Sequence record: PP680570.1
Strand: one strand, 5' to 3'
DNA length: 64,000 bases
DNA from: Enterococcus phage VRE9_4
Below are positions 225-35,636 of this stretch, piece by piece. The notes below the pieces were generated by a model, which saw only the letters and a list, made by a program, of their open reading frames with translations, had not been told where the DNA came from and made no database searches. The position numbers and the translations under genes are program-made. The first letter of the stretch is position 1, and every line of letters starts with the position of its first letter.

Positions 225-2654
225 TTAAGCTGAGCAAGCAACACAATCATCTACACGAGAAGCGTCATGAGAACGAGTATAGTAAGAAGATTTAATTCCT
301 CTAGACCAAACTTCCATATGAAGACGAAGTAAGTTTTTAACCTTAATATCATCTAAGATATATAAATTAAATGAAGTAGATTGATCTACCCATTTTTGAC
401 GTTCTGCGTTGTGGAGAATAGCCCACATATGACCCAAATCTCTCTCTCCTTCAAACTCCATTAACATAGTTGGTTTATAATAGAACCATGTTTCTAAACT
501 TAATTCTGGAGCAATAACAGGTGTACGAGAATCTTTCTTACCATCAAAAAAGATAGTGTCGTAAACTGTGTCTGCCGCTGCAGTAGAACCAGCTAACAAG
601 GAAGTAGAACCTGTTGGAGCAACTGCTCTTAAATATCCATTTCGCATACCTTTTTTAGCTTTGTAATAAACCTCTGCTCGATAAGCATCCTCAATACGAT
701 CTTGACAAACTCCTCGACGATCCAACCATTCTCCTGTATTCCATTGACTTCCCTCAAATAAAGGATAACTTCCTTTTTCTTGAGCTAAATCTGCCGACGC
801 CTCAATGATATTTAGCATGATTCTTTCTTCTAGCCGAGCAATTAATTTAGTTGCTTCAACTGAATCAAAATGAATTCCTTGTTTAGCCAAAACTGCTGCA
901 ATACCTTGTTCACCAATCCCAATAGCACGATAACGATTATTTGTATATTGGGCTTGTAAAACAGGTAAATTATTAACAGTGATAACTGCATCAGTAGCAC
1001 GAACTTGAGTACGTAAAACCTGTCTTAATTTTTCAAATGCTTTAACATCATCGCTGGTTTGTGGTCCTTCGACAGAAAGGGTAAAATCTTTCAAAACATT
1101 GTTAAGAACAATAGAAGATAAATTACATGTTACAAAATCTCCACTTTGTTTATGGACAATAATTTCTCCTAGTTCATTAATAGTTTCTTTAGTCATAATT
1201 GTAGGAGATTGATTTTGTACAATCTCAGAACACAAATTAGAGCAGTATACCATTCCTGCATGATTATTAGGATTATCTCTATTTGCAGTATCCCGATAGA
1301 ACATATAAGGCAAACCAGTTTCTAGTTGAGAACGCATAATTTTTTTCATAATTTCAATAGCTGGCAAACGTTTCTTTAAATGTAAATCGTTATTATCTAC
1401 AGCCTTAAAATAGTGATAAGAGAAAGCGTGACGATCAGGATCTAGTGGTGATTTCCCATCCCATTTTTCTTTATCGTAGAAATCTTCCAGAGAAAAACCT
1501 AATACTTTTTTCACTTCGTGAGGGTCAAATAAATACCAGTCTCCTCGTTTTTCTACTTGTTGCATAAATAAATCAGGAATAGAAGCACCTAAAAATAGTT
1601 CATGCGCTCGTTTAGATAGATCTCCTGTATTTAAACGTAACTCTAAGAAATCTTCTATATCATAATGCCAAACATCCAAATATGCTGCAATAGCACCACT
1701 GCGAACTCCTAGTTGGTCTACCGAAACAGCAGTATTATTTAATTGTTTAAGCCAACCAACAATACCTCCTGCAGCACCGACATTTCCTCTAATATCTGAA
1801 CCAGCAGCACGAATTTTACCTACATAAATACCAATTCCTCCACCAGCCTTGCTTAGGCGAGCAGCATCTGTATTGTCATCATAGATCCCTTGTAAGCTAT
1901 CATCTGTTGTTAAAATAAAGCAACTAGAAAATTGTGCATCTGGTCGTCCAGCATTTGCAAATGTTGGAGTAGCCATAGTAACTTCTTGTTTAGATAGTAC
2001 ATCATATAATTCTTTTACATGTTGTAGTCTATCTTGTGTTTCTTCTCTTAATAAAGAAATCGCAATTGTCATATAACGTTCTTGTGGTAATTCAAATACT
2101 GAACGTCCTTTGTCTTTAGCTCGAATAAGATATCTTTCAGACATATTATATAAACCAGCATAAGTCAAAAGTAAATCTCGTTCTGGCTTAATATATTTAC
2201 CTAATTCTTGAATTTCTTCTTTAGTATATTTTACAAAAATTTCTGGTTCAATAAGACCTTGTTCACCAAGAGAAGAAAGAAGACCAAAATAGTCGCCATA
2301 TTTTGAATCAACATCATAGCTTCTATTTTTTGAAGCTCGTTTATACAACGAATTTAATAATGCTCTAGCTGCAACAAATTCAAATTGGGTATTGCCTAAT
2401 TTATCAAAATCCATCATTTCCCCATCTTTAAAGTCCATGATTCTATCAATTGCATTTTGAATAATAACATCATTGATATCTCGGAAATCAATCTCTTGTC
2501 TACCCTGAATTTGTTTAATAACGCCCTTCTTATATGCTTCAAACGTATCTGGATGAACATCCAGTCCTTCCTTAAAGCTATCTAATTTATTAATTAATCG
2601 TTGTGGATCAAATTCCAATTTTCTCAATCCATTATCTTTTACTACTACTGTCAA
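225..2654 (-). CDS. nrdE: ribonucleotide reductase class Ib large subunit (NrdE-like)
   Basis: 809 aa; active-site SNLCSEI motif; C-terminal CxxC pair (DDCVACSA); no ATP-cone; typical class I length. Confidence 0.85.
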   Translation of the reverse strand: MTVVVKDNGLRKLEFDPQRLINKLDSFKEGLDVHPDTFEAYKKGVIKQIQGRQEIDFRDINDVIIQNAIDRIMDFKDGEMMDFDKLGNTQFEFVAARALLNSLYKRASKNRSYDVDSKYGDYFGLLSSLGEQGLIEPEIFVKYTKEEIQELGKYIKPERDLLLTYAGLYNMSERYLIRAKDKGRSVFELPQERYMTIAISLLREETQDRLQHVKELYDVLSKQEVTMATPTFANAGRPDAQFSSCFILTTDDSLQGIYDDNTDAARLSKAGGGIGIYVGKIRAAGSDIRGNVGAAGGIVGWLKQLNNTAVSVDQLGVRSGAIAAYLDVWHYDIEDFLELRLNTGDLSKRAHELFLGASIPDLFMQQVEKRGDWYLFDPHEVKKVLGFSLEDFYDKEKWDGKSPLDPDRHAFSYHYFKAVDNNDLHLKKRLPAIEIMKKIMRSQLETGLPYMFYRDTANRDNPNNHAGMVYCSNLCSEIVQNQSPTIMTKETINELGEIIVHKQSGDFVTCNLSSIVLNNVLKDFTLSVEGPQTSDDVKAFEKLRQVLRTQVRATDAVITVNNLPVLQAQYTNNRYRAIGIGEQGIAAVLAKQGIHFDSVEATKLIARLEERIMLNIIEASADLAQEKGSYPLFEGSQWNTGEWLDRRGVCQDRIEDAYRAEVYYKAKKGMRNGYLRAVAPTGSTSLLAGSTAAADTVYDTIFFDGKKDSRTPVIAPELSLETWFYYKPTMLMEFEGERDLGHMWAILHNAERQKWVDQSTSFNLYILDDIKVKNLLRLHMEVWSRGIKSSYYTRSHDASRVDDCVACSA

Positions 2655-2728
2655 ATAAATCTCTCCTTTTTTAATCCTGTAATCTTTATAAAACCCAATA
2701 TATAGATATTTATACGAAATAAACCACC

Positions 2729-3211
2729 TTATATAGAAGCATATTTAATCAAGGCAAGTAAGACATCTACCAGTCCATTATTACAATCAATAAATACTGA
2801 TTCAGCTTTTCCTTCTCGTCCTATTACAGAAACCTCTTTTTTGTCTATATCTACAATCATAGCTGTATATTTTCCTGTGGTAGAATATAAAATAAAACCA
2901 CTAGATTTTCCGTCCTTATCATGTTTAATGTATATTTCATCTTCACTATATCCTAAAGCATCTATAATATAAAAAACTATAGTTCTCATATTTGTTCCTG
3001 TTGTTTCCTTATCAAAATATAAACTCATAGATGAAATAAAGTCTTTCTCATAAGAATGACAATCATAAAACATTAAATTTAAAGAATCTTTAGTTATTAT
3101 AGGACTTACTTCTATTCTTCCTTTTGGAGAATATATTTTGCCCTCTACCCTTAAAACTTTAGAGCGGCTAATTTCTTTTACAATTGCACTTACCTCTTCT
3201 AATGGTCTCAT
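2729..3211 (-). CDS. hypothetical protein (160 aa)
   Basis: ORF with upstream SD; no recognisable motif (does not look like NrdI flavodoxin). Confidence 0.5.
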   Translation of the reverse strand: MRPLEEVSAIVKEISRSKVLRVEGKIYSPKGRIEVSPIITKDSLNLMFYDCHSYEKDFISSMSLYFDKETTGTNMRTIVFYIIDALGYSEDEIYIKHDKDGKSSGFILYSTTGKYTAMIVDIDKKEVSVIGREGKAESVFIDCNNGLVDVLLALIKYASI

Positions 3212-3301: not shown

Positions 3302-3886
3302 TTAGTACCAGCCATTAGCCATCCAAAAAGCTTGCGCTGCTTCCCATGAACCATAACGTTGAGCTACATAATTTTCTGCAACACGTTCCTGGTTTGCTGG
3401 AGAATGATCTCCATTTAGATAAGCTGAATCTAGTTGATAACGTCCGATGTAACGACCATTTGTTGCTGAGTATGAACCACCTGATTCACGTTGAGCAATC
3501 CATTCTTTTGCTGAACTTGTCCCTACTGAAGGAGCCTGTTCAACAACTGGTGATTGTTCTACTACTGGAGCTTGTTCCACAACATTTTCTTGCACAACTG
3601 GAGCTTCAACTACCGCCGCTGTTGCTGGAGCCTGAACCTCTCCATTGGTTGGAATCAATAATAAATCTCCAACAAAAATCATATTAGCATCACTAACTGT
3701 ATCAAGGTTAGATTGATGGATCAAACTATGATCTAATCCATATTTGTTACCGATAGCAGATAAAGTATCTCCTGCTTCTACTTCGTAATAAGTTTGTCCA
3801 TCTTTTTGAATTTCTGCTGCGTGAACACCTGTTCCACCAATAAATAAAGCTCCTGCCAATAGTCCTGCGATAATAATTTTCTTCAA
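3302..3886 (-). CDS. secreted LysM-domain + transglycosylase-like (Rpf/SceD/IsaA-type) peptidoglycan-binding/hydrolase protein
   Basis: N-terminal signal peptide MKKIIIAGLLAGALFIGGTGVHA; LysM-like YEVEAGDTLSAIGNKYG; Pro/Ala/Val-rich linker; C-terminal WIAQRESGGSYSATNGRYIGRYQL motif typical of transglycosylase-like domain. Confidence 0.7.
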   Translation of the reverse strand: MKKIIIAGLLAGALFIGGTGVHAAEIQKDGQTYYEVEAGDTLSAIGNKYGLDHSLIHQSNLDTVSDANMIFVGDLLLIPTNGEVQAPATAAVVEAPVVQENVVEQAPVVEQSPVVEQAPSVGTSSAKEWIAQRESGGSYSATNGRYIGRYQLDSAYLNGDHSPANQERVAENYVAQRYGSWEAAQAFWMANGWY

Positions 3887-3890
3887 ATTG

Positions 3891-5674: not shown

Positions 5675-5733
5675 TAAAATTTCCTCCTTATTTAACTTTA
5701 TAATTAATTATATCATCTTTAATAAAAAAAGTC

Positions 5734-5880
5734 AATAATTGTCTCGCCAAACACCTTTTATTTTTTTTCGTGCTTTTTGTCTAGTTAATGGATACCATTG
5801 TTCACTCTTAGCTTTTTTTAAAATTTGAGCTTCAATTGGAATCCATCTACCATCACTATCTTTTCTATATATTAACATAT
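5734..5880 (-). CDS. small basic hypothetical protein (48 aa, not in ORF track)
   Basis: ATG at 5880 preceded by GGAGAGAG; MLIYRKDSDGRWIPIEAQILKKAK... Confidence 0.3.
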
Positions 5881-5902
5881 TACTCTCTCCCTGTCAAGTA
5901 AA

Positions 5903-7204
5903 TTAAATTTTAATCCAAATATCTCCTTCTCTACCTGCTTTACCTGGATCAGTAACACTAAAGAAAATTCTAACTCCTTTAAATGATATATATGATTGTT
6001 CAGAAGATAATGCAGTATCTGTTAATAATTCACCATCACTCATTCTCAAATAGTGATAATATCCGCTTTCTGTTGGTTGTCCACTACCAGCATAATTTCT
6101 TGGGAATAAAATAGCTGCATCACGACTGCTAGAATAATTTCTAAAAACAAGCTGTCCAATACCATTCATTGCTCCACCATTAATATCAATGGCTGGTTTA
6201 CGATTTAAATTACCTACATAAGTTAAGTTAGGCTCAGAAATTTTTAACGCTGGCATACCTAAATATCGTTTAGTATCTCCAATAGTCATTTGACCTGCAG
6301 GAATATGAATTCGTCCAAAATTCAATGTTAAAGAGCCACCAGTATTTCCGTCGACCCCACCAAAAATAATATCATTCAATTCTGTTCCGCCATTACCACT
6401 TGTCGCTATAACTAACGAATCTGTTGGGCTTGTTGGAAATTGAAAATCTAATCTTCCAAAACTATTTCTAATACTTAATGGGAGTCCGGAACGATCTGTA
6501 TCTAATACAAGACTTCCTGTCATGGTTTGGTTTATAGTTTTATCTAAATAATTTTCATGTTTATGATTTACTGGGGCTAAATTTGTATGGGTGTGATTGA
6601 TAGGTGAATATTTTGATTTCATTGTTTCTAACAAAGTTTTACCAGCAGATGCTGCTAATGCTCTATCAGAAGCTGAACTATCTAATGTAGAAACTAGTTC
6701 ATCTTTACGAACATATTGACTGAAATCAATTCCACCTTCACTTGGAGATGCACCAGTCACTTCATAAGGAACAAAAGTACTACCATTCCAACCAAGCAAT
6801 GTATTAACTTTTAAATTTTCTCCCAGTGTAACATCTTTAAGTTCTCCAATAGAAGAGTTGGTTGATAATACTGATGCTCCTCCTACTCGCAATGCCCCAG
6901 TAAAATTGTTCCAATCTCCTTCCCATATATTGTTTCCACCCTTAAGAGCTATTAAGGCTGCTTCTATACCTTGATCTTGAACAATTTTTGTAATCTCTGG
7001 CACCAAATCAGAAAAATCTGATACTGTATGTTTGTGACCTTTTTGAGAAACCTCTTTCCATGATTCGTTATTTTGTCCTGTAGCTACCCAAATAGCTCTA
7101 GGATTTGAACCTGTATCAATATAAGTTTGTCCATAATATTCAGCACTAATAGTTGGTTTACCTGTGCCGTATAACATATTTCCTCTAGTAATATGAATTG
7201 ACAT
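5903..7204 (-). CDS. putative tail fibre / receptor-binding protein (His-rich HxH repeats)
   Basis: 433 aa; Gly/Ser/Thr/Asn-rich; HTHTNLAPVNHKHENY His-x-His cluster reminiscent of metal-binding fibre tips; no enzymatic motif. Confidence 0.4.
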   Translation of the reverse strand: MSIHITRGNMLYGTGKPTISAEYYGQTYIDTGSNPRAIWVATGQNNESWKEVSQKGHKHTVSDFSDLVPEITKIVQDQGIEAALIALKGGNNIWEGDWNNFTGALRVGGASVLSTNSSIGELKDVTLGENLKVNTLLGWNGSTFVPYEVTGASPSEGGIDFSQYVRKDELVSTLDSSASDRALAASAGKTLLETMKSKYSPINHTHTNLAPVNHKHENYLDKTINQTMTGSLVLDTDRSGLPLSIRNSFGRLDFQFPTSPTDSLVIATSGNGGTELNDIIFGGVDGNTGGSLTLNFGRIHIPAGQMTIGDTKRYLGMPALKISEPNLTYVGNLNRKPAIDINGGAMNGIGQLVFRNYSSSRDAAILFPRNYAGSGQPTESGYYHYLRMSDGELLTDTALSSEQSYISFKGVRIFFSVTDPGKAGREGDIWIKI

Positions 7205-7264
7205 TTATTTGTCCTCCTTTATAATCTTTCTCTTATGTATATTAAAAAGCTTTTAAACCTAATA

Positions 7265-7300
7265 TAAAAAAAGAACCCTAAAAGATTAAAGGGTTCAAAA
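7265..7300 (-). terminator. terminator hairpin GAACCCT...AGGGTTC
   Basis: 7-bp stem + T-run on minus strand downstream of 7295..7807. Confidence 0.55.
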
Positions 7301-7807
7301 ACTTTCTGACGTTTTTAGAAAAATAATACCATTGGAAATAAATTTTTGTCCCCAATAAGTATCTTCTATTTCTTTATACTCATCTTGATTTACAGGAATT
7401 GGCAATGTACTTCTTACAATAGTTTGCTGTTTCATAATCTCTTTTTTTAAACGTTCCCTTTTTGTATATTTGGTTACCATATAAGGTAATATAAATATAG
7501 CAGGGAAAACTAAAAGCATTGAAAGCAAAATTATAAGAAAAGAACGGAAAGTAAAAATAGAAGCTACTCTATCTTCTTGCTCCCATCTTTTGGCTGGAAG
7601 TAAAATTGATTGCTCATCAAAATTCCAGCGTTCAATTAATAAATCTCTTTTTTCGATTGCATTTCGAGCTTTTTCTAGTTCTACTTGATGCCGAACTAAA
7701 ACTCTACTATTGAATAGCTCCACTTTTAACCCTCCTAACCAATCAGGAATCCTGTGTTTTTCTATAAAATTCTTTAACATGCGAAAAACAAGCTCGTCCT
7801 CCTTCAT
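7295..7807 (-). CDS. membrane protein (170 aa)
   Basis: hydrophobic segment FRSFLIILLSMLLVFPAIFILPYMV. Confidence 0.5.
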   Translation of the reverse strand: MKEDELVFRMLKNFIEKHRIPDWLGGLKVELFNSRVLVRHQVELEKARNAIEKRDLLIERWNFDEQSILLPAKRWEQEDRVASIFTFRSFLIILLSMLLVFPAIFILPYMVTKYTKRERLKKEIMKQQTIVRSTLPIPVNQDEYKEIEDTYWGQKFISNGIIFLKTSESF

Positions 7808-7819
7808 CTATCTGGTTTT

Positions 7820-8440
7820 TTAAAACAATTTAATTTGGTGTGAAGAACCTTTCACATAATTTACTACTAACATAGCTAATTTACCAGGATCTACATAAAT
7901 AGAATTTAATCTATTATAAATGAAATTTATTTCGGTTAGATTTGAATCTTTTGGCTCGTTTAATAAAAGATTATAATTTTCTGACAAGTGGTGTCCTAAT
8001 CCAGAAATGTTTTCAATAAAGACTGAGGTGCCATCATAAGTATAATCAAAATACTTATTAGCAACTTTATCAAACCATAATACATCTTTCTCTGCTAGTA
8101 AATACATGTCTGGATCTTCTAACAATTCCATGAAGAAAATAATAGAATCTCTCGCCACCTTATTTCCTGCTTCTCTTGGAAGAATATTGCCATATATACT
8201 ATAAAAAACTAGATATAAATCTTCTTTAGTTTTTATAGAACAAGCTTCTTTGTCTTTTGCAGTATATTCTATTATATTATAGTTTATAAATGAATTTAGA
8301 ATAGGTCCAATAGGTTTATCAGCCACAAAAAATTTAATATCTTCCATTGAACGATTTTCTAAATATTGATTAAAATATTCTGTATAGACCAAAGGCCCGC
8401 TACCAAAGATAGCAGGCTGTCCAGTAAAATCTAACATCAT
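7820..8440 (-). CDS. hypothetical protein (206 aa)
   Basis: ORF, start overlaps upstream stop (ATGA). Confidence 0.55.
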   Translation of the reverse strand: MMLDFTGQPAIFGSGPLVYTEYFNQYLENRSMEDIKFFVADKPIGPILNSFINYNIIEYTAKDKEACSIKTKEDLYLVFYSIYGNILPREAGNKVARDSIIFFMELLEDPDMYLLAEKDVLWFDKVANKYFDYTYDGTSVFIENISGLGHHLSENYNLLLNEPKDSNLTEINFIYNRLNSIYVDPGKLAMLVVNYVKGSSHQIKLF

Positions 8441-23156: not shown

Positions 23157-23528
23157 ATGATTATTTATTATGATGAAGGTTTAGTGGAAGATTATATAGA
23201 CAAAAATATCGTTAAACCTGTATTAAAATTAATTGAACAGACAATAGAAGATGCTGGTAAAGATCCTTCAGAATGGGAATTTTTGAATTTATCTATTTCT
23301 TTAAATGATACTGAATTAAAGTATATTGAGGCTTTTGGAGAAAACAAATTTTATTTTCGGTTCATGGAAGAAAATATTCATGTGTATATTCGCAATAAAG
23401 AATTGTATATCACAAAAAAGAGAAGATCTGGAATTCAGCTTTCTGATTACTTAAACGAAGAAAATATGGAGCTAACAGCAAATCAAATTAGTGATTTTTT
23501 AGAACAATATTTTAAGGAGGAAGAATAA
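23157..23528 (+). CDS. hypothetical protein (123 aa)
   Basis: GGAGAG SD. Confidence 0.5.
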   Translation: MIIYYDEGLVEDYIDKNIVKPVLKLIEQTIEDAGKDPSEWEFLNLSISLNDTELKYIEAFGENKFYFRFMEENIHVYIRNKELYITKKRRSGIQLSDYLNEENMELTANQISDFLEQYFKEEE

Positions 23529-28205: not shown

Positions 28206-28435
28206 TGGATAAAGATATAAAATATACGATCTCAAGTGGAGGCGAAACAATTGGTTATTGGACGCAAGAAGAATATGAAATCTGGATGGCGAAGATTCAT
28301 GGTACTCACGAATACTCTGAAGAAGAACAAAGAAAAATTGAAGAAGTTAGAAAAAGATTAAATAATATATCTATGATAAAAAATAGTGATGGTAGTTATA
28401 GATTTATTAAAGAGGAGGAAAACAGTGTCGATTAA
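28205..28435 (+). CDS. hypothetical protein (76 aa)
   Basis: TAATG coupling. Confidence 0.45.
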   Translation: MDKDIKYTISSGGETIGYWTQEEYEIWMAKIHGTHEYSEEEQRKIEEVRKRLNNISMIKNSDGSYRFIKEEENSVD

Positions 28436-29276
28436 TTTATTATATGGTAAACCAGTAGCAGATTCAATTTATAAAGATATTCATTATCCAAATAAAAAAG
28501 TTTTGCATATTTTCCAGGTTGGAGATCTAGAGGAATCTAATCGCTATATCAAAAATAAGATTAAAAAGGCTGAATCTTTAGGTATTCCAACTCAGCTACA
28601 TAAGGCTGAAACTAAAGAAAAGGTCGGTAAAATTTTAGAAGAACTTGTATCTTTGACAAAGATTCCTAATCGAGATAAAGTATCTGGTATATTTGTTCAA
28701 CTTCCTTTTGAATTTGATCGCTTTATGGAAGATACATTTTTGCGTGTAATTCCCCCAGAATTTGATGTTGACGGTTTAACACATTATAATTTAGGACGTC
28801 TACTAGATGGAAGCAGAACTGACCTAAATTTTGTCCCAGCAACAGCGCATGGGGTAGTAGATATGCTAAAATATTATAACATCCCAATAGAAGGGAAAAC
28901 AGTAGGTATCATTGGTCGCTCAAACTTGGTCGGGAAGCCACTTATTCCTCTTCTTTTGGAAGAAAATGCAACTGTCATTAGCATGAACTCTTATACTGAT
29001 AAAAAGAATTTAGCTTCTCTTAGTAAACAATGTGATATATTAGTGGTAGCAATTGGAAAAGCTAACTTTATAGATAGTAATTTTATTAAAGATAATGCTA
29101 CTGTTATAGATGTTGGCATTAATTTTGATGAGTCTGGAAAGTTAGTTGGAGATGTAGATTCTGATTCTTTGAAAAAAGAAGGTTGGAATGGTAATCTTTC
29201 TCCAGTACCAGGTGGGGTTGGACCTTTGACAATTGCTAATTTAATGAGAAATGTAAGTATAGGAGCGTGGAGATAA
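28425..29276 (+). CDS. folD: bifunctional methylene-THF dehydrogenase/methenyl-THF cyclohydrolase
   Basis: GRSNLVGKPLIPLL, PGGVGPLTIANL; GTG start 28425 behind AGGAGG (track ORF extends further 5'). Confidence 0.8.
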   Translation: MSINLLYGKPVADSIYKDIHYPNKKVLHIFQVGDLEESNRYIKNKIKKAESLGIPTQLHKAETKEKVGKILEELVSLTKIPNRDKVSGIFVQLPFEFDRFMEDTFLRVIPPEFDVDGLTHYNLGRLLDGSRTDLNFVPATAHGVVDMLKYYNIPIEGKTVGIIGRSNLVGKPLIPLLLEENATVISMNSYTDKKNLASLSKQCDILVVAIGKANFIDSNFIKDNATVIDVGINFDESGKLVGDVDSDSLKKEGWNGNLSPVPGGVGPLTIANLMRNVSIGAWR

Positions 29277-29597: not shown

Positions 29598-30050
29598 ATG
29601 ATAGAGTTAGCCTCTCATATTGTAGATGTGAGTTTAGAACATAAAAAATATATTTATCACTTACAGTTACAAAAAATCACGTATTATACTGTATTACAAG
29701 GACTAAAATTAAATTTAATAGATAAAGATACCTTTGAAGAATTATATAAATTTGAGCTTGATAGATTTACACCATCAAGGTATGGTCCTCGGTCTGAAGC
29801 TATATTTCTTCGATATGGTGTTTTTGGAGCGGAAAGGATTTTTACTAATTCTTTTAGCAATTTTTGTCTAAGGGATATGGATTTTTCCCATTTAAATCCT
29901 ATTATTCTTCCTCTTTTGGAAGAACAGACAATGGATTTATGTAGAAAAAGTATGAAAAATCCTATTTTTGAAGAACGATTTAAAGATAATAAAGAACTTA
30001 GTATTGAAGATATATTTGAACTTAGCAAAAAATATTCAGATTTGAAATAA
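29598..30050 (+). CDS. hypothetical protein (150 aa)
   Basis: ORF behind cassette. Confidence 0.55.
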   Translation: MIELASHIVDVSLEHKKYIYHLQLQKITYYTVLQGLKLNLIDKDTFEELYKFELDRFTPSRYGPRSEAIFLRYGVFGAERIFTNSFSNFCLRDMDFSHLNPIILPLLEEQTMDLCRKSMKNPIFEERFKDNKELSIEDIFELSKKYSDLK

Positions 30051-30094
30051 AAAATATAAAATGATATAATTAATTATAAAGTTAAATAAGGAGG
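30042..30094 (+). promoter_or_regulatory. conserved promoter/leader cassette copy 2
   Basis: identical cassette. Confidence 0.75.
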
Positions 30095-30103
30095 AAATTT
30101 TAA

Positions 30104-30634
30104 ATGAAAAAAAGTTTAGTAGGGTTCTCAATTGTTGCAATGTTTGGTTTAGGTTTAGTAGGATGTACTAAAGGAGAAGTTCCTGATGAACAATGGAAAA
30201 GCGAAAATTCTACTGAACAGACAGTAGAAAGTAGCACAGTAGAATCGTCTGAGCAAAAAGAACCTTATAAAAAAGATGAGGTTCAATTATCTACACTAGA
30301 ACAACAAGTTTTAGATGCTTTTCAACAAAGTTTTCAATCAACAGGACCGGTTCGTTTTGATTCTGTAAACAAATATTATATTATTACACCAACAGACCCT
30401 CAATTTACGCAAGAAATGGCAGCTATCATGGATGGCACATTAAGTTTAGATGTATGGACTAATTTAGTTCAAAATGTTCAACAAACATCCTTAGGTTTAC
30501 AAGATACTCTTGGTAGTGGATATACAATTATTATTGAAAATCCATTTGAAACAGGTCAGATGTTTTTGGCGGTAAGTGATGGAAAAGTTGTTTTTGATGG
30601 TTTAACAGAATATATGACTGGTCAAAACACATAA
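30104..30634 (+). CDS. lipoprotein (signal peptide + lipobox LVGC)
   Basis: MKKSLVGFSIVAMFGLGLVGCTKGE. Confidence 0.65.
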   Translation: MKKSLVGFSIVAMFGLGLVGCTKGEVPDEQWKSENSTEQTVESSTVESSEQKEPYKKDEVQLSTLEQQVLDAFQQSFQSTGPVRFDSVNKYYIITPTDPQFTQEMAAIMDGTLSLDVWTNLVQNVQQTSLGLQDTLGSGYTIIIENPFETGQMFLAVSDGKVVFDGLTEYMTGQNT

Positions 30635-30635
30635 C

Positions 30636-30664
30636 TTGAAAAAATATGAATAACATGTTATAAT
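30636..30664 (+). promoter_or_regulatory. promoter TTGAAA-N14-TGTTATAAT driving tRNA array
   Basis: rigid architecture; no ORF follows. Confidence 0.55.
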
Positions 30665-30684
30665 ATTTATATAAGATAAAGTTA

Positions 30685-30768
30685 CTTGAGTGGTCTTAAA
30701 AAGGAAAGACGCATGGTTTAATCTTCCATGAAACGTTGGTTCGAGTCCAACCTCAAGAATACCAGGAC
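30685..30768 (+). ncRNA. tRNA-like element with canonical T-arm (GTTGG-TTCGAGT-CCAAC) but aberrant anticodon region (5-bp stem CATGG/CCATG with 9-nt loop TTTAATCTT)
   Basis: hand-folded; acceptor CTTGAGT/CCTCAAG with one mismatch. Confidence 0.35.
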
Positions 30769-31020
30769 TGGCTATCCTTTCACCTTATAGCTAGAGGTTG
30801 ATAAAGATAAAGTGGAATTAACCACAGTTGGCTGCTCCCTAGGTTAAAGAAGATACCTATTGGGTCGGGGCATAAGCTAAGTTAACTAATAAACAACTTC
30901 TTTTGGTTAGCTTTTCTCACGAGTGATTGTTGAGGTTCAATTCCTTCTTAACCTATGGGCGGGGCAACACTCTACCGGAGATAAAAATATATAATTTAGT
31001 TTAATATTCTCGAGAACGGT

Positions 31021-31115
31021 TGAGATATGGCGGAAAGGTAGACGCAAGGAGAGTCTCCCCATTGGAGACCCCTGTGCATGACGATGCAGTGTAGGTTCGA
31101 ATCCTACTATCTCAG
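31021..31115 (+). ncRNA. tRNA-like element (perfect acceptor TGAGATA/TATCTCA, T-arm GTAGG-TTCGAAT-CCTAC, long variable hairpin TGCAT-GACG-ATGCA, CAT in anticodon-like loop) with non-canonical D/anticodon spacing
   Basis: hand-folded; 95 nt. Confidence 0.4.
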
Positions 31116-31176
31116 TTAAACAGGGACTTGAGCTAATTCATTTTAGCCAGTCCTTATCCCGAAAGGGAAAAATAAT

Positions 31177-31205
31177 TTGACATTTTAAGCATAATATGTT
31201 ATAAT
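31177..31205 (+). promoter_or_regulatory. promoter TTGACA-N14-TGTTATAAT
   Basis: upstream of tRNA-Glu. Confidence 0.55.
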
Positions 31206-31236
31206 TATTATATAATAAAGATAAGAAATATAAAAC

Positions 31237-31308
31237 GGCTTGTTGGTCAAGAAGTTAAGACGCTCGACTTTCACTCGGGAATCACAGGTGCAAATCCTGT
31301 ACAAGTCA
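31237..31308 (+). tRNA. tRNA-Glu (TTC)
   Basis: acceptor GGCTTGT/ACAAGTC, anticodon loop CTTTCAC, T-arm ACAGG-TGCAAAT-CCTGT. Confidence 0.7.
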
Positions 31309-31318
31309 TTAACATTAT

Positions 31319-31347
31319 TTGAAAAAAATCTTTCAAAATGTTATAAT
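31319..31347 (+). promoter_or_regulatory. promoter TTGAAA-N14-TGTTATAAT
   Basis: drives 31397 gene. Confidence 0.55.
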
Positions 31348-31396
31348 TAATATGTAAAAAGAAATAAAAAACTTATTTTAAAAGGAGAGATTCATC

Positions 31397-31789
31397 ATGG
31401 AAAAACAAACTAAAGCAGATATGTATCGTAACGCAGCAAAATTGTTGGAAGTAAATGCTCCTGAATATGCAGAAATGTTATTGGAAGATGCTCAAAGAAT
31501 TGAAGCTCGTAACGCAAGTCGTCGGAATGTTGATACTAAAGTTCAAAAAGAAAATAAACACATCGCTGCTTTAGTAATTGAGTTTTTCCATAATGATGCT
31601 GAAAATGGAATCGCTTATGACAGTGGCGAAATTGCAAATGCTGTTGGAATCGAAGTTTCTCCTCAGAAAATGTCAGCAATTATGCGTTTAGTTGGGGATG
31701 AAGTAGATAAGGTAAATCAAGCTACTAACAATAAAGATCATATTGGATATAAAAAGAAAGGAACTGAATTAGTTTCTGATGAAAATTAG
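31397..31789 (+). CDS. small winged-helix protein, paralogue family member (wH-2)
   Basis: C-terminal SPQKMSAIMRLVGDE...HIGYKKKG matches family wing. Confidence 0.55.
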   Translation: MEKQTKADMYRNAAKLLEVNAPEYAEMLLEDAQRIEARNASRRNVDTKVQKENKHIAALVIEFFHNDAENGIAYDSGEIANAVGIEVSPQKMSAIMRLVGDEVDKVNQATNNKDHIGYKKKGTELVSDEN

Positions 31790-31836
31790 GACAAAATGTC
31801 CTAATTAAATATCCCCATATTTTATTGGGGATACAC

Positions 31837-31911
31837 CAGGGTATAGGAGAATTTGGTTAATCCGCTGCATTTGGGATGCAGAGATTGTTGGTTCAAATCC
31901 AGCTACCCTGA
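31837..31911 (+). tRNA. tRNA-Pro (TGG)
   Basis: anticodon arm CTGCA-TTTGGGA-TGCAG; T-arm GTTGG-TTCAAAT-CCAGC. Confidence 0.7.
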
Positions 31912-31987
31912 TTGAAACAACGTGTTAGAACGTTGGGCGTGAAGGGATTTATCCTATGAAGGGATTTATCCTAACACGTTTAAACAT

Positions 31988-32058
31988 TCACCTATGATGA
32001 AATGGTATCATGACTGGCTGTTAACCAGTTCTTGTAGGTTCGAATCCTGCTGGGTGAG
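31988..32058 (+). tRNA. tRNA-Asn (GTT)
   Basis: ACTGG-CTGTTAA-CCAGT; D-arm ATGA-AATGGTA-TCAT. Confidence 0.75.
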
Positions 32059-32064
32059 TATTTT

Positions 32065-32147
32065 GCGAGAGTGGCGGAATTGGCAGACGCACTAGATTTA
32101 GGATCTAGCGTTTTCATAACGTGTGGGTTCAAGTCCCACCTCTTGTA
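32065..32147 (+). tRNA. tRNA-Leu (TAG), type II
   Basis: CTAGA-TTTAGGA-TCTAG; long variable arm; T-arm GTGGG-TTCAAGT-CCCAC. Confidence 0.75.
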
Positions 32148-32156
32148 TAATAAAAT

Positions 32157-32240
32157 GGAGAGTCCCTGTTGGCTAAAGGAAGAATGTTTTGAAAGCATTT
32201 GGCGGTAACACGTCCAAGGGTTCGATTCCCTTACTCTCCT
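32157..32240 (+). tRNA. tRNA-Ser (TGA), type II
   Basis: AATGT-TTTGAAA-GCATT; variable arm GGCGG...CGTCC; T-arm AAGGG-TTCGATT-CCCTT. Confidence 0.75.
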
Positions 32241-32350
32241 TAAAGAATCTTACAGCAAATATCATATGTTTAATAGGCTAATTCAAATATATTATATAAG
32301 ATTCTTGAAGTTATTTTTAGCCGATTAAGAGATAAAGGAGATAAATAACT

Positions 32351-33862
32351 ATGACATTTTTAGATAATTTGAAAGAGGAAGCAACAGTTGGACGCACTTT
32401 TAATGGTGCAACCACTTATACTACTTCATTAAATGCTAATGTTGACTTTTTTGCATTAGGTGGGTCTATGCGATACCAAAATATTGGAGATAAGATTTCA
32501 TTATTTGAAAAAGCATATAATGAAGACAGAGCTATTGCATTGAGAAACCTAGTTTATATGCGAGATATTCGTAATGGTGGACTAGGTGAAAGAGATATGT
32601 TCCACGCAGGAATTTGGTTCTTAGCTAAAAAGAAAGATGAAAAAGCACTTCATGTTATCATGGATAATGTAGCTGATTTTAGTCGCTGGGACGATCTATT
32701 TTTCATTATGAAACAAGACGAAAAATTGTTTGATTATGGACTAATTATCATTAAAACTCAGCTTTTGAAAGATATGGATAATATGCGAAAAGGCAAAGAA
32801 ATTTCTTTATTAGGAAAATGGTTGCCTAATATCAATGCTAAAAACGAAGAACGAAGAGCTTTTGGTCTTAGAGTTGCTAATGCTTTAGGATACACTAAGC
32901 CTAGTGATTATAAGGTTTACCGAAAAATGTTGGTTAACCTAAGAGAAAAATTAGATTTAGTAGAAGTAAAATTAGCTGCTAAAGATTATGACTCAATTGA
33001 TTTTTCTAAACTACCTTCTCGAGCAGGATTCAAGTATCGCTCAGCATTTTGGCGCCATATTTCAGATCGCTATTCTGAATTTTTGGAAGCTGTGAATAAT
33101 GGCGAAGCTACAATGAACGGAAGTTTGGTAATGCCAGATGAAATTATTAAAGCTTATGGATATCGAGGGTATTTTTCTTATGGATATTCTTCTTATGAAG
33201 AAAAACCTGAATTAGAAGCTGCATGGAAATCTCTAAAAGATACTGTTAAGGGTTCTGATGAGAATGTAATTGTAGTCGCAGATACTTCTGCTTCTATGTG
33301 GGGTAAACCATGGGAAGTGGCTGAAGGTTTAGCAATTTATACTGCTGAACGCTTGGAAGGACCGTTCAAGAATAATTTTATCACTTTCTCTAGACGCCCA
33401 CAATTGGTAACTCTACCAAGTAATTGTTCCTTACGAGATAAAATGAACGAATATTCTCGTCATTCTATTATCGAAAACACAGATATTGAAGCAGTATTTA
33501 ATCTTATTTTAGATACTGCTATCAAGAATAACACTCCAAAAGAGGAAGTTCCATCTAAAATTATCATTGTTTCAGATATGGAATTTGATCTTCAACGAGG
33601 AAATGACGTTACACATTTCAAACTTGCAAAATCTCGTTTTGAGAACGCTGGTTATGAAATGCCAGATGTAGTCTTTTGGAATGTAAATGCTAGATTAGGA
33701 AACTTACCTGTTCGTTATAATGAACAAGGAGTAGCATTAGTATCTGGATTCAGCACAAATATTCTAACTTCCATCTTAAATGGGAAACTAGAAACTCCAG
33801 AAGCTATGATGTTAGAAACGTTATCTAATCCAGCATTTGACTTCATTGATGAAGCCATCTAA
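32351..33862 (+). CDS. Ro60/TROVE-like or DUF2828-like protein with C-terminal von Willebrand A (MIDAS) domain
   Basis: 503 aa; ~300-aa helical N-terminal region followed by VIVVADTSASMWG (DxSxS MIDAS) and downstream Thr/Asp ligands (IIIVSDMEFD). Confidence 0.55.
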   Translation: MTFLDNLKEEATVGRTFNGATTYTTSLNANVDFFALGGSMRYQNIGDKISLFEKAYNEDRAIALRNLVYMRDIRNGGLGERDMFHAGIWFLAKKKDEKALHVIMDNVADFSRWDDLFFIMKQDEKLFDYGLIIIKTQLLKDMDNMRKGKEISLLGKWLPNINAKNEERRAFGLRVANALGYTKPSDYKVYRKMLVNLREKLDLVEVKLAAKDYDSIDFSKLPSRAGFKYRSAFWRHISDRYSEFLEAVNNGEATMNGSLVMPDEIIKAYGYRGYFSYGYSSYEEKPELEAAWKSLKDTVKGSDENVIVVADTSASMWGKPWEVAEGLAIYTAERLEGPFKNNFITFSRRPQLVTLPSNCSLRDKMNEYSRHSIIENTDIEAVFNLILDTAIKNNTPKEEVPSKIIIVSDMEFDLQRGNDVTHFKLAKSRFENAGYEMPDVVFWNVNARLGNLPVRYNEQGVALVSGFSTNILTSILNGKLETPEAMMLETLSNPAFDFIDEAI

Positions 33863-33900
33863 AATGCCCCCCTTTTCTACCTCTTAATTGAGGTAGTTAC

Positions 33901-33974
33901 GCTTCTTTAGCTCAGTAGGTAGTAGCGCCAGTCTGAAGAACTGGAGGTCCCTGGTTCGATTCCAGGAGGAAGCA
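33901..33974 (+). tRNA. tRNA-Phe (GAA)
   Basis: GCTCAGTAGGTAG D-arm; CCAGT-CTGAAGA-ACTGG; T-arm CCTGG-TTCGATT-CCAGG. Confidence 0.8.
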
Positions 33975-34031
33975 TTAATTCAGCCCAGGAAAGTGCCAAT
34001 ACTATATTCGCTCTCTTGGGCTTTTTCATAT

Positions 34032-34060
34032 TTGAAAAAATATATTAATCATGTTATAAT
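34032..34060 (+). promoter_or_regulatory. promoter TTGAAA-N14-TGTTATAAT driving tRNA-Cys
   Basis: rigid architecture + leader-like TAATCATAAAGTTAATTAAG. Confidence 0.55.
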
Positions 34061-34092
34061 TAATCATAAAGTTAATTAAGAACTTTAAAAAT

Positions 34093-34166
34093 GTCCCTGT
34101 CGCCAAGAGGCTTAAGGCTATGGATTGCAAACCCATAATACGTGAGTTCGAATCTCACCAGGGACT
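34093..34166 (+). tRNA. tRNA-Cys (GCA)
   Basis: acceptor GTCCCTG/CAGGGAC; loop TTGCAAA; T-arm GTGAG-TTCGAAT-CTCAC. Confidence 0.75.
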
Positions 34167-34193
34167 TTTAAATAAAAAGGAGTCGATAATGGA

Positions 34194-34490
34194 ATGGATA
34201 AGGAAAAAATTAAAGAATCTTGGAGCTATTGTTTAACCCGAAGCACTAACATCAGAAAATTAGCTTCTAAAAATGAAGCTATTAGGAAAGATAGTTTAGA
34301 AAAAAACATTGCTACTAAAACTGCTTTAGAAATTTTAAAAGAGCAATTAAATGTTTTAATTGAGATGCTGGAGAAAATTGATTTAGAAGAAGAACTTCTC
34401 TTAACTTATCAAGAGAAAGCTGCGGTAGAGTATCTTATTGAAGTATATGAAAATCTTATTATTGTGAAAGAGGGGGAGCAACTTGACTAA
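34194..34490 (+). CDS. hypothetical protein (98 aa)
   Basis: ORF. Confidence 0.45.
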   Translation: MDKEKIKESWSYCLTRSTNIRKLASKNEAIRKDSLEKNIATKTALEILKEQLNVLIEMLEKIDLEEELLLTYQEKAAVEYLIEVYENLIIVKEGEQLD

Positions 34491-35124
34491 ATTTATTACA
34501 AGTGATTGGCATTTCTTTCATAATAATGCTTGTGGTCCAGAAGGATTCATTTCTACTAGAAAAAAGTTTTCCTCTGTAGAAGAGATGAACGATAGTATTA
34601 TTAAAACTATTAATCAAAAGGTTGGTAGAGATGATACCATTATTCATTTAGGAGATATTGGCTTTGGTAAACCTAAAAAATTGTTTGAAACATTAGAAAA
34701 AATCAATGGACAAATTATTTTAATTAAAGGAAATCATGATAGTTCAAAATTATTTAAGTATATTGTAAATAATAATTATCATTATCCATATAGTAACCCT
34801 AAAAAACGTAAACAATCTCCTGACCGAGTTAAATTTTTAGTTGAAGAAGTTGGTTTAAGGGAAAAAATGAATGGTAAGGTTTACTATTTAACTCACTACC
34901 CATTTCAGTTAGGAGAACAACGTAAAAATATGCGTTCAATTTGTGGACATATTCATGAGCAAATTGCTCCTGAGGCTAATATGATTAACGTAGGTATTGA
35001 TTCTCCTGAAATTACTTCAAAGATTTCTAATTTTGGAGAACCTCTTCTTCTGGAAGATGCAATAGAATTAGTTGATAAAAAATGGGAAAAATGGTATAAT
35101 ACTATAAGATTTTTGGGAAGTTAA
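34483..35124 (+). CDS. calcineurin-like metallophosphoesterase
   Basis: SDWHFFH, LGDIGFG, KGNHD, GHIHE motifs; TTG start behind GAGGGGGAG. Confidence 0.7.
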   Translation: MTKFITSDWHFFHNNACGPEGFISTRKKFSSVEEMNDSIIKTINQKVGRDDTIIHLGDIGFGKPKKLFETLEKINGQIILIKGNHDSSKLFKYIVNNNYHYPYSNPKKRKQSPDRVKFLVEEVGLREKMNGKVYYLTHYPFQLGEQRKNMRSICGHIHEQIAPEANMINVGIDSPEITSKISNFGEPLLLEDAIELVDKKWEKWYNTIRFLGS

Positions 35125-35137
35125 TCTTCCCTTTTAT

Positions 35138-35227
35138 GGAGCTATGACTGAGAGGTTGAAGGTGACGCACTGCTAATGCGTTAGTCGACATAAAGTTGGC
35201 TCATGGGTTCGAATCCCATTAGCTCCT
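35138..35227 (+). tRNA. tRNA-Ser (GCT), type II
   Basis: ACGCA-CTGCTAA-TGCGT; T-arm ATGGG-TTCGAAT-CCCAT; acceptor GGAGCTA/TAGCTCC. Confidence 0.7.
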
Positions 35228-35253
35228 TTTATTAAAAATAGGGGGGTTTTTAT

Positions 35254-35469
35254 ATGTTCCGTACTAGTTTAGCATTTTTCTTATCTGCTCTAGCAATGAT
35301 CGTAATTATGATTCTATTTGCTCCATTTCTGTTATATTTAATTTGGAATTTTGTAGTAGTAATAGCGTTTCCAGGATTGTTTACTCTAACCTTTTTCCAA
35401 TGTTTTAGTATAACATTATTGCTTGCTTTTTTGAGAGCAGTTTTCACTAATAAAAAATCTAACGACTAA
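35254..35469 (+). CDS. small membrane protein (2 TM, 71 aa)
   Basis: GGGGGG SD; hydrophobic. Confidence 0.45.
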   Translation: MFRTSLAFFLSALAMIVIMILFAPFLLYLIWNFVVVIAFPGLFTLTFFQCFSITLLLAFLRAVFTNKKSND

Positions 35470-35495
35470 AAAATTAAAGGAGAATGATATAAATA

Positions 35496-35636
35496 TGGCG
35501 AAAAAACAAAACACTACTAAAGAACCAGTTGAATTGACACAAAAGATTGATTTTACTGAATGGTTGAAAAAACAGGAAGCAGCCTTTAGAAGTAAAGTTT
35601 ATAAAGAACATAAGAAATCTAAGCCCGTTAAATAGG
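35496..35636 (+). CDS. small protein (46 aa, not in ORF track)
   Basis: AAAGGAGAATG SD; followed directly by terminator. Confidence 0.35.

Follow-up and report, generated by a model that had tools for sequence, protein, structure and literature searches.

The closest described systems pair a Ro60 (Rsr) protein with Y RNAs. Bacterial Y RNAs mimic tRNA and are found within 4 kb of rsr, and the YrlA class, with its GNCGAA motif, was defined near TROVE-annotated genes (Chen et al. 2014; PMC4201824). In Thermus phage phiLo, a TROVE-type Ro60 binds two upstream CGAA-bearing RNAs (Yrl1/Yrl2) as well as the host PNPase (Hu et al. 2025; PMC12135203). The PhageMaP preprint describes gp130 of Escherichia phage Bas63 as Ro60-like, encoded beside tRNA genes and countering the Ppl defence system, and its authors guessed that some phage tRNA genes are Y RNAs (PMC11482910). 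LeBron gp53 is toxic on overproduction (PMC13148394). Here we analysed a 64,000-nt stretch of Enterococcus phage VRE9_4 (PP680570.1; referred to below as the window), in which a Ro-like gene (32351-33862) is embedded in a tRNA array. A first-pass annotation of this DNA had arrived at the same idea as the PhageMaP authors, proposing that two tRNA-like elements well upstream of the gene, with a structured stretch between them, are its Y-RNA-type partners. Our results point instead to a short stem-loop carrying the motif ACAGCAA, located directly 5' of the gene (32241-32309), as the probable partner.

The Ro-like gene (32351-33862, + strand) was borne out as an open reading frame (ORF) of 503 aa, encoding a helical-repeat N-terminal region of ~300 aa followed by a von Willebrand factor type A (vWA) domain. 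The metal ion-dependent adhesion site (MIDAS) of the latter, VVADTSASM at residues 307-315, is intact, as had been noted, and its DxSxS...T...D residues (D311, S313, S315, T377 and D409) show no variation among 46 homologues; several N-terminal arginines are equally invariant. In Pfam, hmmscan at E<=1 returned just DUF7788 (residues 305-482; 7e-44, 150.1 bits, cut-off 27.1), DUF2828 (1e-27, 97.5 bits, cut-off 29) and a weak match to VWA_2; TROVE (PF05731) was not matched, and no Ro60 was reached by phmmer or by a family profile run against PDB sequences. PHROG 850 ('RNA-binding protein') matched with an E-value of 2e-148 over residues 1-497. The AlphaFold2 model, built from 46 homologues and of high confidence (predicted local distance difference test score 90.9, predicted template modelling score 0.90), has the Ro60 architecture of a helical-repeat domain with a C-terminal vWA domain, and the top nine Foldseek matches in the PDB were Ro60, Rsr or the Thermus phage phiLo Ro60, all full-length, with E-values from 2e-8 to 2e-5. 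Therefore, the 'Ro60-like' call is right at the level of the fold. The layout proposed earlier, Ro60/Rsr or DUF2828-like, holds for fold and for the DUF2828 match, but not for a TROVE sequence match. The protein belongs to the phage DUF2828/DUF7788 family, which has the Ro60 architecture and is too diverged for the TROVE sequence model. It is an ordinary member of a known, annotated phage family that is separate in sequence from TROVE Ro60: tblastn found homologues in 696 phage records, under labels such as 'Ro-like RNA binding protein', 'putative ribonucleoprotein', 'DUF2828' and 'vWFA protein'.

Within the 110-nt gap 5' of this ORF lies the ACAGCAA stem-loop (32241-32309, + strand), a candidate Y-RNA-like RNA recognized by two covariance models (R1 and R2, see below) and by its fold. 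It reads AAGAATCTTA, 44 nt, TAAGATTCTT. The 5' arm, AAGAATCT(TA), occupies 32243-32250(52) and is followed by ACAGCAA at 32252-32258; the 3' arm, (TA)AGATTCTT, occupies 32297(99)-32306 and is followed by a conserved G at 32307. The helix is thus 8-10 bp long and the stem-loop proper spans 64 nt (32243-32306), with a predicted folding energy of -11.9 kcal/mol (z -2.55). The element begins right after the 3' end of tRNA-Ser(tga), the stem starting 2 nt on, and 41 nt separate its end from the ATG of the Ro-like gene. It had been overlooked in the first-pass annotation.

The lead to this element came from Schiekvirus vB_OCPT_Bop, whose homologue is 50% identical to the window protein. The region upstream of that homologue gives two Rfam YrlA matches (47.7 and 34.3 bits, below the gathering score of 69), each made up of a T arm, an acceptor-like hairpin (7 bp, closed) and a D arm. 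Both modules, together with a third that has no tRNA-like part, have in common a closing stem of the form AAGAAnnn..ACAGCAA ... nnnUUCUUG, in which the nnn positions covary. When the region was compared with the window by short-word BLAST (blastn-short), the best match was 32241-32258 (18 nt); an nhmmer search of the window with the Y-like region gave no match. In vB_OCPT_Bop itself, positions 3395-3890, directly 5' of the Ro-like gene, hold three tandem modules of ~180 nt, each opening with a GUUCC...GGAAC hairpin, after which comes an ACAGCAA element. A transfer-messenger RNA (tmRNA; 443-793, 142 bits) lies inside the tRNA array of the same phage.

We defined the family as an 8-bp helix (5' arm consensus A-A-G-A-C-R-C-N), 1 nt, ACAGC[AT]A, a loop, the complementary arm and a G, on the gene strand and near DUF2828, and surveyed 86 homologue-bearing loci, drawn from 80 IMG/VR contigs and from the sister phages of VRE9_4, a Schiekvirus, a Listeria phage, a mycobacteriophage and a Felix O1-like phage. 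The strict pattern (8/8 paired arm, 1 nt, ACAGC[AT]A, complementary arm) was applied to 85 loci, EF1 being excluded as a near-duplicate of VRE9_1, and in these 901 kb it occurred 94 times on the gene strand versus 0 times on the opposite strand. A looser pattern gave 197 matches versus 9.2 in shuffled sequences. The strict matches keep close to the gene: 45 of the 94 end no more than 300 nt upstream of it, and 8 start no more than 300 nt downstream. Model R1, constructed from 42 short copies, yielded 187 matches (50 + 137) at E<=0.1 over the 86 loci, every one on the gene strand; at E<=0.01 it had a match in 63 loci, 35 of which had contributed nothing to the model. R2 was built from IMG/VR contigs only and contains no Enterococcus or Listeria phage sequence. 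The window stem-loop belongs to this family by both models as well as by strand and position. It is the sole full match in the 64-kb window for R1 (47.9 bits, E-value 2.5e-8) and for R2 (34.8 bits, E-value 3.6e-5), and with filters switched off R1 found nothing else in 30000-35500. Elsewhere in the window, a weak partial match at 23472-23517 with AACAGCAA and no full stem (20.7 bits, E-value ~0.03-0.05) is probably due to chance.

Copies beside homologues were also found in Staphylococcus, Bacillus, Campylobacter and Listeria phages. Stem pairs 2-4 keep A-U, G-C and R-Y, with double changes elsewhere; the variants are AU/UA/GC at pair 1, AU/GC at pair 4 and CG/AU/UA at pair 5 (plus GC in the larger pattern set). 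The copies fall into two length classes, ~50-70 nt and ~115-128 nt. A T arm is present in 19 of 24 long copies, which follow one of two layouts: layout A is permuted as in YrlA (T arm, closed acceptor, D arm), and layout B is unpermuted, with D arm, anticodon arm and T arm inside the closing stem. The element is undescribed in Rfam 15 and in the searchable literature on DUF2828, Ro-like proteins, YrlA in phages and Ro60 with tRNA arrays, a result bounded by these sources and not proof of absence. In Shigella phage Sf14, a weakly detected variant, AGACCAA UU ACAGCAAA ... UUGGUCU GG, occurs at 5715-5784 and 5878-5945, between tRNAs just downstream of the Ro-like gene. At the locus of Listeria phage vB_Liva_VAfA18, the Ro-like gene and the tRNA array are accompanied by a large non-coding RNA and an RNA ligase: a near-threshold ROOL RNA (2460-3011; 89.8 bits, gathering score 99.1) lies ~1 kb 5' of the homologue, and a 'tRNA splicing ligase' (RtcB-like) gene (6733-8052) lies ~1.2 kb 3' of it.

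The RNAs put forward in the first-pass annotation lie further upstream. Two tRNA-like elements with aberrant cores do exist there, scoring above the Rfam tRNA gathering score (29 bits) and skipped by ARAGORN at default settings. Element 1 (30684-30759, + strand; Rfam tRNA 41 bits) is a non-canonical tRNA-like sequence with a 9-nt anticodon loop (UUUAAUCUU) and A:A at 1:72; ARAGORN calls it 'Ile(aat)' only at a relaxed threshold, and in EF1 it is annotated as tRNA-Pseudo-???. Element 2 (31021-31115, + strand; 38.5 bits) is of class II (Ser-like) with a long variable arm. In its anticodon arm ~10 extra nt form a hairpin, so that the loop amounts to ~17 nt in all, and relaxed ARAGORN reads it as Ser(gga) with a 10-nt 'intron' (fold z -2.64). 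Both elements align to the ordinary Rfam tRNA model end to end, their 5' and 3' termini both lying in the acceptor stem, and their D and T arms are good. Hence they are non-canonical tRNA-like genes whose topology is that of a normal tRNA, without permutation. With anticodon loops of 9 nt and ~17 nt, they are incompatible with ordinary decoding.

The 240-bp stretch between them had been called structured. As a whole it folds no better than shuffled sequences (z -0.46), but a 146-nt core (30825-30970, + strand) does (z -3.10, 0/200 shuffles), with a multibranch interior enclosed by a long, imperfect stem, and a T-arm-like hairpin. This core matches neither Rfam nor the ACAGCAA model and has one near-identical further copy, in IMG/VR. 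It is a lineage-specific, dispensable element, missing from 4 of 6 relatives. Its absence reflects the loss of a 287-nt segment (window 30790-31067), which is present in the window phage, VRE9_1/2 and one IMG/VR contig and deleted in EF1, H1 and VRE9_3 (from the alignment) and in EF5 (from a matching search result). The deletion takes most of the structured stretch together with the 5' half of element 2, and the Ro-like gene is retained, at 92-96% identity, in all four phages that have undergone it. The possibility that this indel is an intron or a mobile insertion was considered and rejected: a truncated 3' half of element 2 remains, pointing to plain decay. Two further candidates were discarded. 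ARAGORN in tmRNA and intron modes proposed, on 30600-31330, a permuted tmRNA and a 243-nt minus-strand 'intron', both implausible, and a long-range pairing of AGGACTGGCT (30764) with AGCCAGTCCT (31147) is altered in its 5' copy in EF1-type phages with no compensating change.

The region aligns to Enterococcus phages EF1, EF5, H1 and VRE9_1/2/3 (genomes of ~138-142 kb) at 92-98% identity, and comparison with these sister phages explains why elements 1 and 2 lie so close to the Ro-like gene in the window. In VRE9_1 and EF1 they are ~6 kb 5' of the gene, with a dozen more tRNAs and several ORFs in between. Up to and including the 22-mer TAAAGAATCTTACAGCAAATAT, the window is identical to what comes after tRNA-Ser(tga) in VRE9_1, and from that 22-mer on it is identical to the VRE9_1 sequence just 5' of the Ro-like gene. 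This switch indicates a deletion of ~4.8 kb between two direct repeats in the window phage, which accounts for the proximity of elements 1 and 2 to the gene. Each repeat forms the 5' end of a copy of the ACAGCAA element (VRE9_1 1169-1190 and 6001-6022; window 32241-32262), and since the breakpoint is a repeat common to both copies, the array is remodelled by recombination at the repeated RNA genes. What the window phage lacks, compared with VRE9_1 and EF1, comprises tRNA-Tyr, Leu, Thr, Arg, Trp and Ile, three further stem-loop copies, small ORFs and a gene for endonuclease VII. VRE9_1 and EF1 have a long copy directly after tRNA-Ser or tRNA-Asn; the window phage lost the long copy in the deletion and kept the short, gene-proximal one. 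Also lost is an unannotated tRNA-like sequence at ~5930-6000 of VRE9_1, directly 5' of the gene-proximal stem-loop, with a 7-bp acceptor (GCGAAAT/ATTTCGC), D and T arms and no anticodon arm.

With these data the competing explanations can be weighed. The first-pass proposal, in which elements 1 (30684-30759) and 2 (31021-31115), with the intervening stretch, serve the Ro-like protein as Y-RNA-type partners, draws on the fact that the elements are real non-canonical tRNA-like genes, apparently promoter-driven, on the same strand and 1.2-1.7 kb 5' of the gene, with element 1 kept in all 6 sister phages, and on the tRNA mimicry of bacterial Y RNAs found within 4 kb of rsr (PMC4201824). Yet the Y_RNA/YrlA search that had been suggested as a check gave no match in the window at E<=1, nor at E<=10 in 30400-35400 or in a 600-nt query; Rfam searches at gathering and E-value thresholds, covering the window, 5-kb and 600-nt sub-regions and the sister loci, returned tRNAs only. 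GNCGAA(N)G, the motif that defines YrlA, has only two matches within 4 kb, both in coding sequence and none in non-coding DNA, and the window has no orphan T-arm hairpins of the kind expected of permuted tRNA modules, all nine belonging to tRNAs or to elements 1 and 2. These elements have no closing Ro-binding stem, neither they nor the stretch between them match the gene-linked motif (R1, 30000-35500, filters off), and nothing similar to their region was found outside the Enterococcus sister-phage group. The 'Y-RNA gene adjacent to rsr' arrangement also fails, because the closeness seen here is a deletion product and because 4 of 6 relatives have lost the stretch and half of element 2 while keeping the gene. 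Elements 1 and 2 lie outside the proposed ribonucleoprotein (RNP) and are not Y RNAs, and we consider that reading very improbable. What survives of the RNA-partner idea is its transfer to another RNA, the stem-loop at 32241-32309.

Several observations weigh against the stem-loop as a ligand. In sequence, its motif does not resemble the established Ro60-binding sites (GGUCCGA, GNCGAA). No R1 match at E<=0.1 was found in 14 of the 86 loci, Vibrio phi-ST2 is without any copy, and Felix O1-like Sf14 has just the divergent variant (11-18 bits, 2-nt spacer). Many IMG/VR loci are interrelated, and the matches are therefore not independent events; the covariation counts are drawn from sequences selected for pairing, so that the enrichment and the strand bias, and not the pairing percentage, are the real statistics. 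The window copy is short, has no tRNA-like module and lies in a 5' leader, and could be purely cis-acting. Finally, in a reverse search with the 16-mer AAGACACNNACAGCAA, 15 of 24 complete copies lay in large tRNA arrays with no homologue in the stretches retrieved, which are short and irregular. These copies fit an explanation in which the stem-loop is part of a tRNA-array cassette, either a host-RNase processing or stability signal or an independent small RNA, unbound by the protein, with the DUF2828 gene merely sharing a mobile, early-expressed region. Copies are wedged 2-6 nt from tRNAs in large arrays, 11 of 94 strict copies, like the window copy directly after tRNA-Ser, start no more than 15 nt from a tRNA 3' end, and the Ro-like gene is itself strongly array-linked, most loci having same-strand tRNAs, up to 29 of them within 5 kb. 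Mycobacteriophage Faith1 (complete, 75,960 bp) separates the two associations: all its copies, two R1 matches and a long copy with a permuted tRNA-like module, are in the 370-nt gap right after the Ro-like gene, and its tRNA array, 20 kb from the gene, has no motif copy. Likewise, 15 of 26 loci without a tRNA within 5 kb still carry copies beside the gene, in Staphylococcus phage S-CoN_Ph9, which has no array nearby, the gene is immediately followed by three copies in tandem, and in Campylobacter phage F375 and Bacillus phage Tsamsa copies immediately precede it. These observations speak for a tie to the gene rather than to tRNAs. Moreover, a tandem multi-copy layout with embedded tRNA-like modules is typical of Y RNAs, not of processing signals. 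We accordingly regard the array-cassette explanation as rather unlikely.

It is also conceivable, if improbable, that the protein has no dedicated RNA partner, acting like Ro60 on misfolded or damaged phage or host RNAs (e.g. pre-tRNAs), or through its MIDAS/vWA domain on host proteins in anti-defence, and that the stem-loop is a translation regulator only. Ro60 takes misfolded RNAs into its central cavity without a Y RNA (PDB 2i91 and 9nep, both among the Foldseek matches), the MIDAS motif does not vary, the defence system countered by Bas63 gp130 is a putative DNA-degrading one, and the window copy sits in the 5' leader, 28 nt before the Shine-Dalgarno sequence. A regulatory leader leaves unexplained, however, the downstream copies, the arrays of 3-6 tandem copies, the copies located kilobases away in tRNA arrays and the tRNA-like domains. 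On balance, we favour the stem-loop at 32243-32306, directly 5' of the gene, as the most likely RNA ligand of the DUF2828/DUF7788 Ro60-fold protein, a binding prediction that we hold to be somewhat better than even.

The following scheme of processing, binding and function would be consistent with the stem-loop being the ligand. The ORF at 31397-31789, tRNA-Pro, Asn, Leu and Ser, the stem-loop and the Ro-like gene may be transcribed as one unit from the promoter at 31319-31347. As the 3' end of tRNA-Ser(tga) abuts the stem-loop, tRNA 3' processing would define and free the 5' end of the stem-loop RNA. The protein would then bind the conserved helix and ACAGCAA to form an RNP, by analogy with Ro60 on the conserved helix of Y RNAs. 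In the long copies, found in sister phages and many others, the tRNA-like module could recruit tRNA-binding enzymes or nucleases. The role of such an RNP is likely to be RNA surveillance or counter-defence during infection; gp130 of Bas63, a presumed homologue, counters Ppl. Because the sole window copy lies in the leader of the gene itself, autoregulation is a possible second role.

The remaining features concern the setting of the locus, which consists of tRNA genes and small ORFs, all on one strand, with 8 tRNAs between 31237 and 35227 (ARAGORN, default). As described in the first-pass annotation, the Ro-like gene lies between tRNA-Ser(tga) (32157-32240, + strand) and tRNA-Phe(gaa) (33901-33974, + strand; 38 nt 3' of the gene) in a same-strand array, described there as promoter-driven, which continues from tRNA-Phe onwards. 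The tRNA-Ser(tga) called by ARAGORN is below the Rfam tRNA gathering score, with only tRNA-Sec scoring there (25.4 bits), and may be another atypical tRNA. A Shine-Dalgarno-like AAGGAG, read from the sequence, is present at 32335-32340 (+ strand), 10 nt 5' of the Ro-like ATG. Three near-consensus, promoter-like sites with a TG extension were noted: 31319-31347 (+ strand; TTGAAA-17-TATAAT, the closest upstream match of at least 11/12), 31177-31205 (a perfect match) and 30636-30664 (+ strand; 11/12), which would drive elements 1 and 2. The site at 31319-31347 is a consensus match only, and the total number of such sites is not above that in shuffled sequence. Downstream of element 2, at 31120-31175, a conserved bulged hairpin (GGGACTTGAGCTAA...TTAGCCAGTCC) is followed by a CCC-GAAA-GGG tetraloop hairpin and then by the promoter at 31177-31205; these hairpins may be a processing or termination signal between transcription units. 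Just 5' of the array, 28386-29276 encodes a FolD-type methylenetetrahydrofolate dehydrogenase/cyclohydrolase (Pfam THF_DHG_CYH_C, 1e-51), and a metallophosphoesterase gene (34483-35124) neighbours the Ro-like gene.

Phage 'Ro-like' proteins are annotated in hundreds of genomes, and a presumed homologue, Bas63 gp130, has recently been tied to counter-defence. No RNA partner is known for the DUF2828 branch, and published speculation has been aimed at the adjoining tRNA genes. A short and well-delimited motif that accompanies the gene in unrelated phages provides a concrete candidate ligand, and it is carried by tractable phages of Enterococcus, Listeria, Staphylococcus, Bacillus, Campylobacter and Mycobacterium. 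The ACAGCAA element also accounts for part of the unannotated 'spacer' DNA in phage tRNA arrays. In a broader reading, to which we give an even chance, the ACAGCAA stem-loops would be a widespread, undescribed class of Y-RNA-like RNAs, the cognate ligands of the DUF2828 Ro60-fold branch. They would form RNPs that counter host defence via tRNA or RNA metabolism in phages infecting Firmicutes, Actinobacteria and Campylobacter, with a variant form in the Felix O1-like phages; the short forms would be plain hairpins and the long forms permuted or non-permuted tRNA mimics. If this is true, the Y-RNA concept of a conserved protein-binding helix combined with a tRNA-mimic module reaches a second protein family with another recognition sequence.

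Compared with pseudo-tRNA genes in phage arrays, elements 1 and 2 are alike in passing the tRNA gathering score, in their good acceptor, D and T arms and in their position in an array; they differ from ordinary tRNAs in the size of the anticodon loop. Bas63 gp130 resembles the window protein in being structurally Ro60-like and encoded next to phage tRNA genes. It differs in that no RNA partner was identified there, and its placement in the same family is suggested by other Felix O1-like phages, whose homologues of the window protein, at 32-34% identity, are next to arrays. In Thermus phage phiLo (PDB 9KOP, 9L5Y) the Ro60 is a recognizable TROVE protein and the RNAs contain CGAA, in contrast to the DUF2828 protein and the different motif here. 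Relative to Ro60/Rsr in general, the Ro-like protein is without a TROVE match and 12-17% identical to Ro60 proteins, and the window gene has no link to rtcBA/RtcR, its context being a phage tRNA array. The conserved site is likewise distinct, an 8-bp helix with ACAGCAA and not GGUCCGA or GNCGAA(N)G. Nevertheless, the overall organization is that of Ro60/Rsr and its Y RNAs (YrlA/YrlB, Deinococcus Yrn1; RF02553, RF00019): small RNAs, often present as several copies, are encoded next to the gene and on its strand, and a conserved closing helix is joined to a variable module. The window copy, having no tRNA-like module, is more YrlB-like, whereas some long ACAGCAA copies are circularly permuted exactly as in YrlA, two of them, in a Schiekvirus, reaching 34-48 bits with the YrlA model, below its gathering score.

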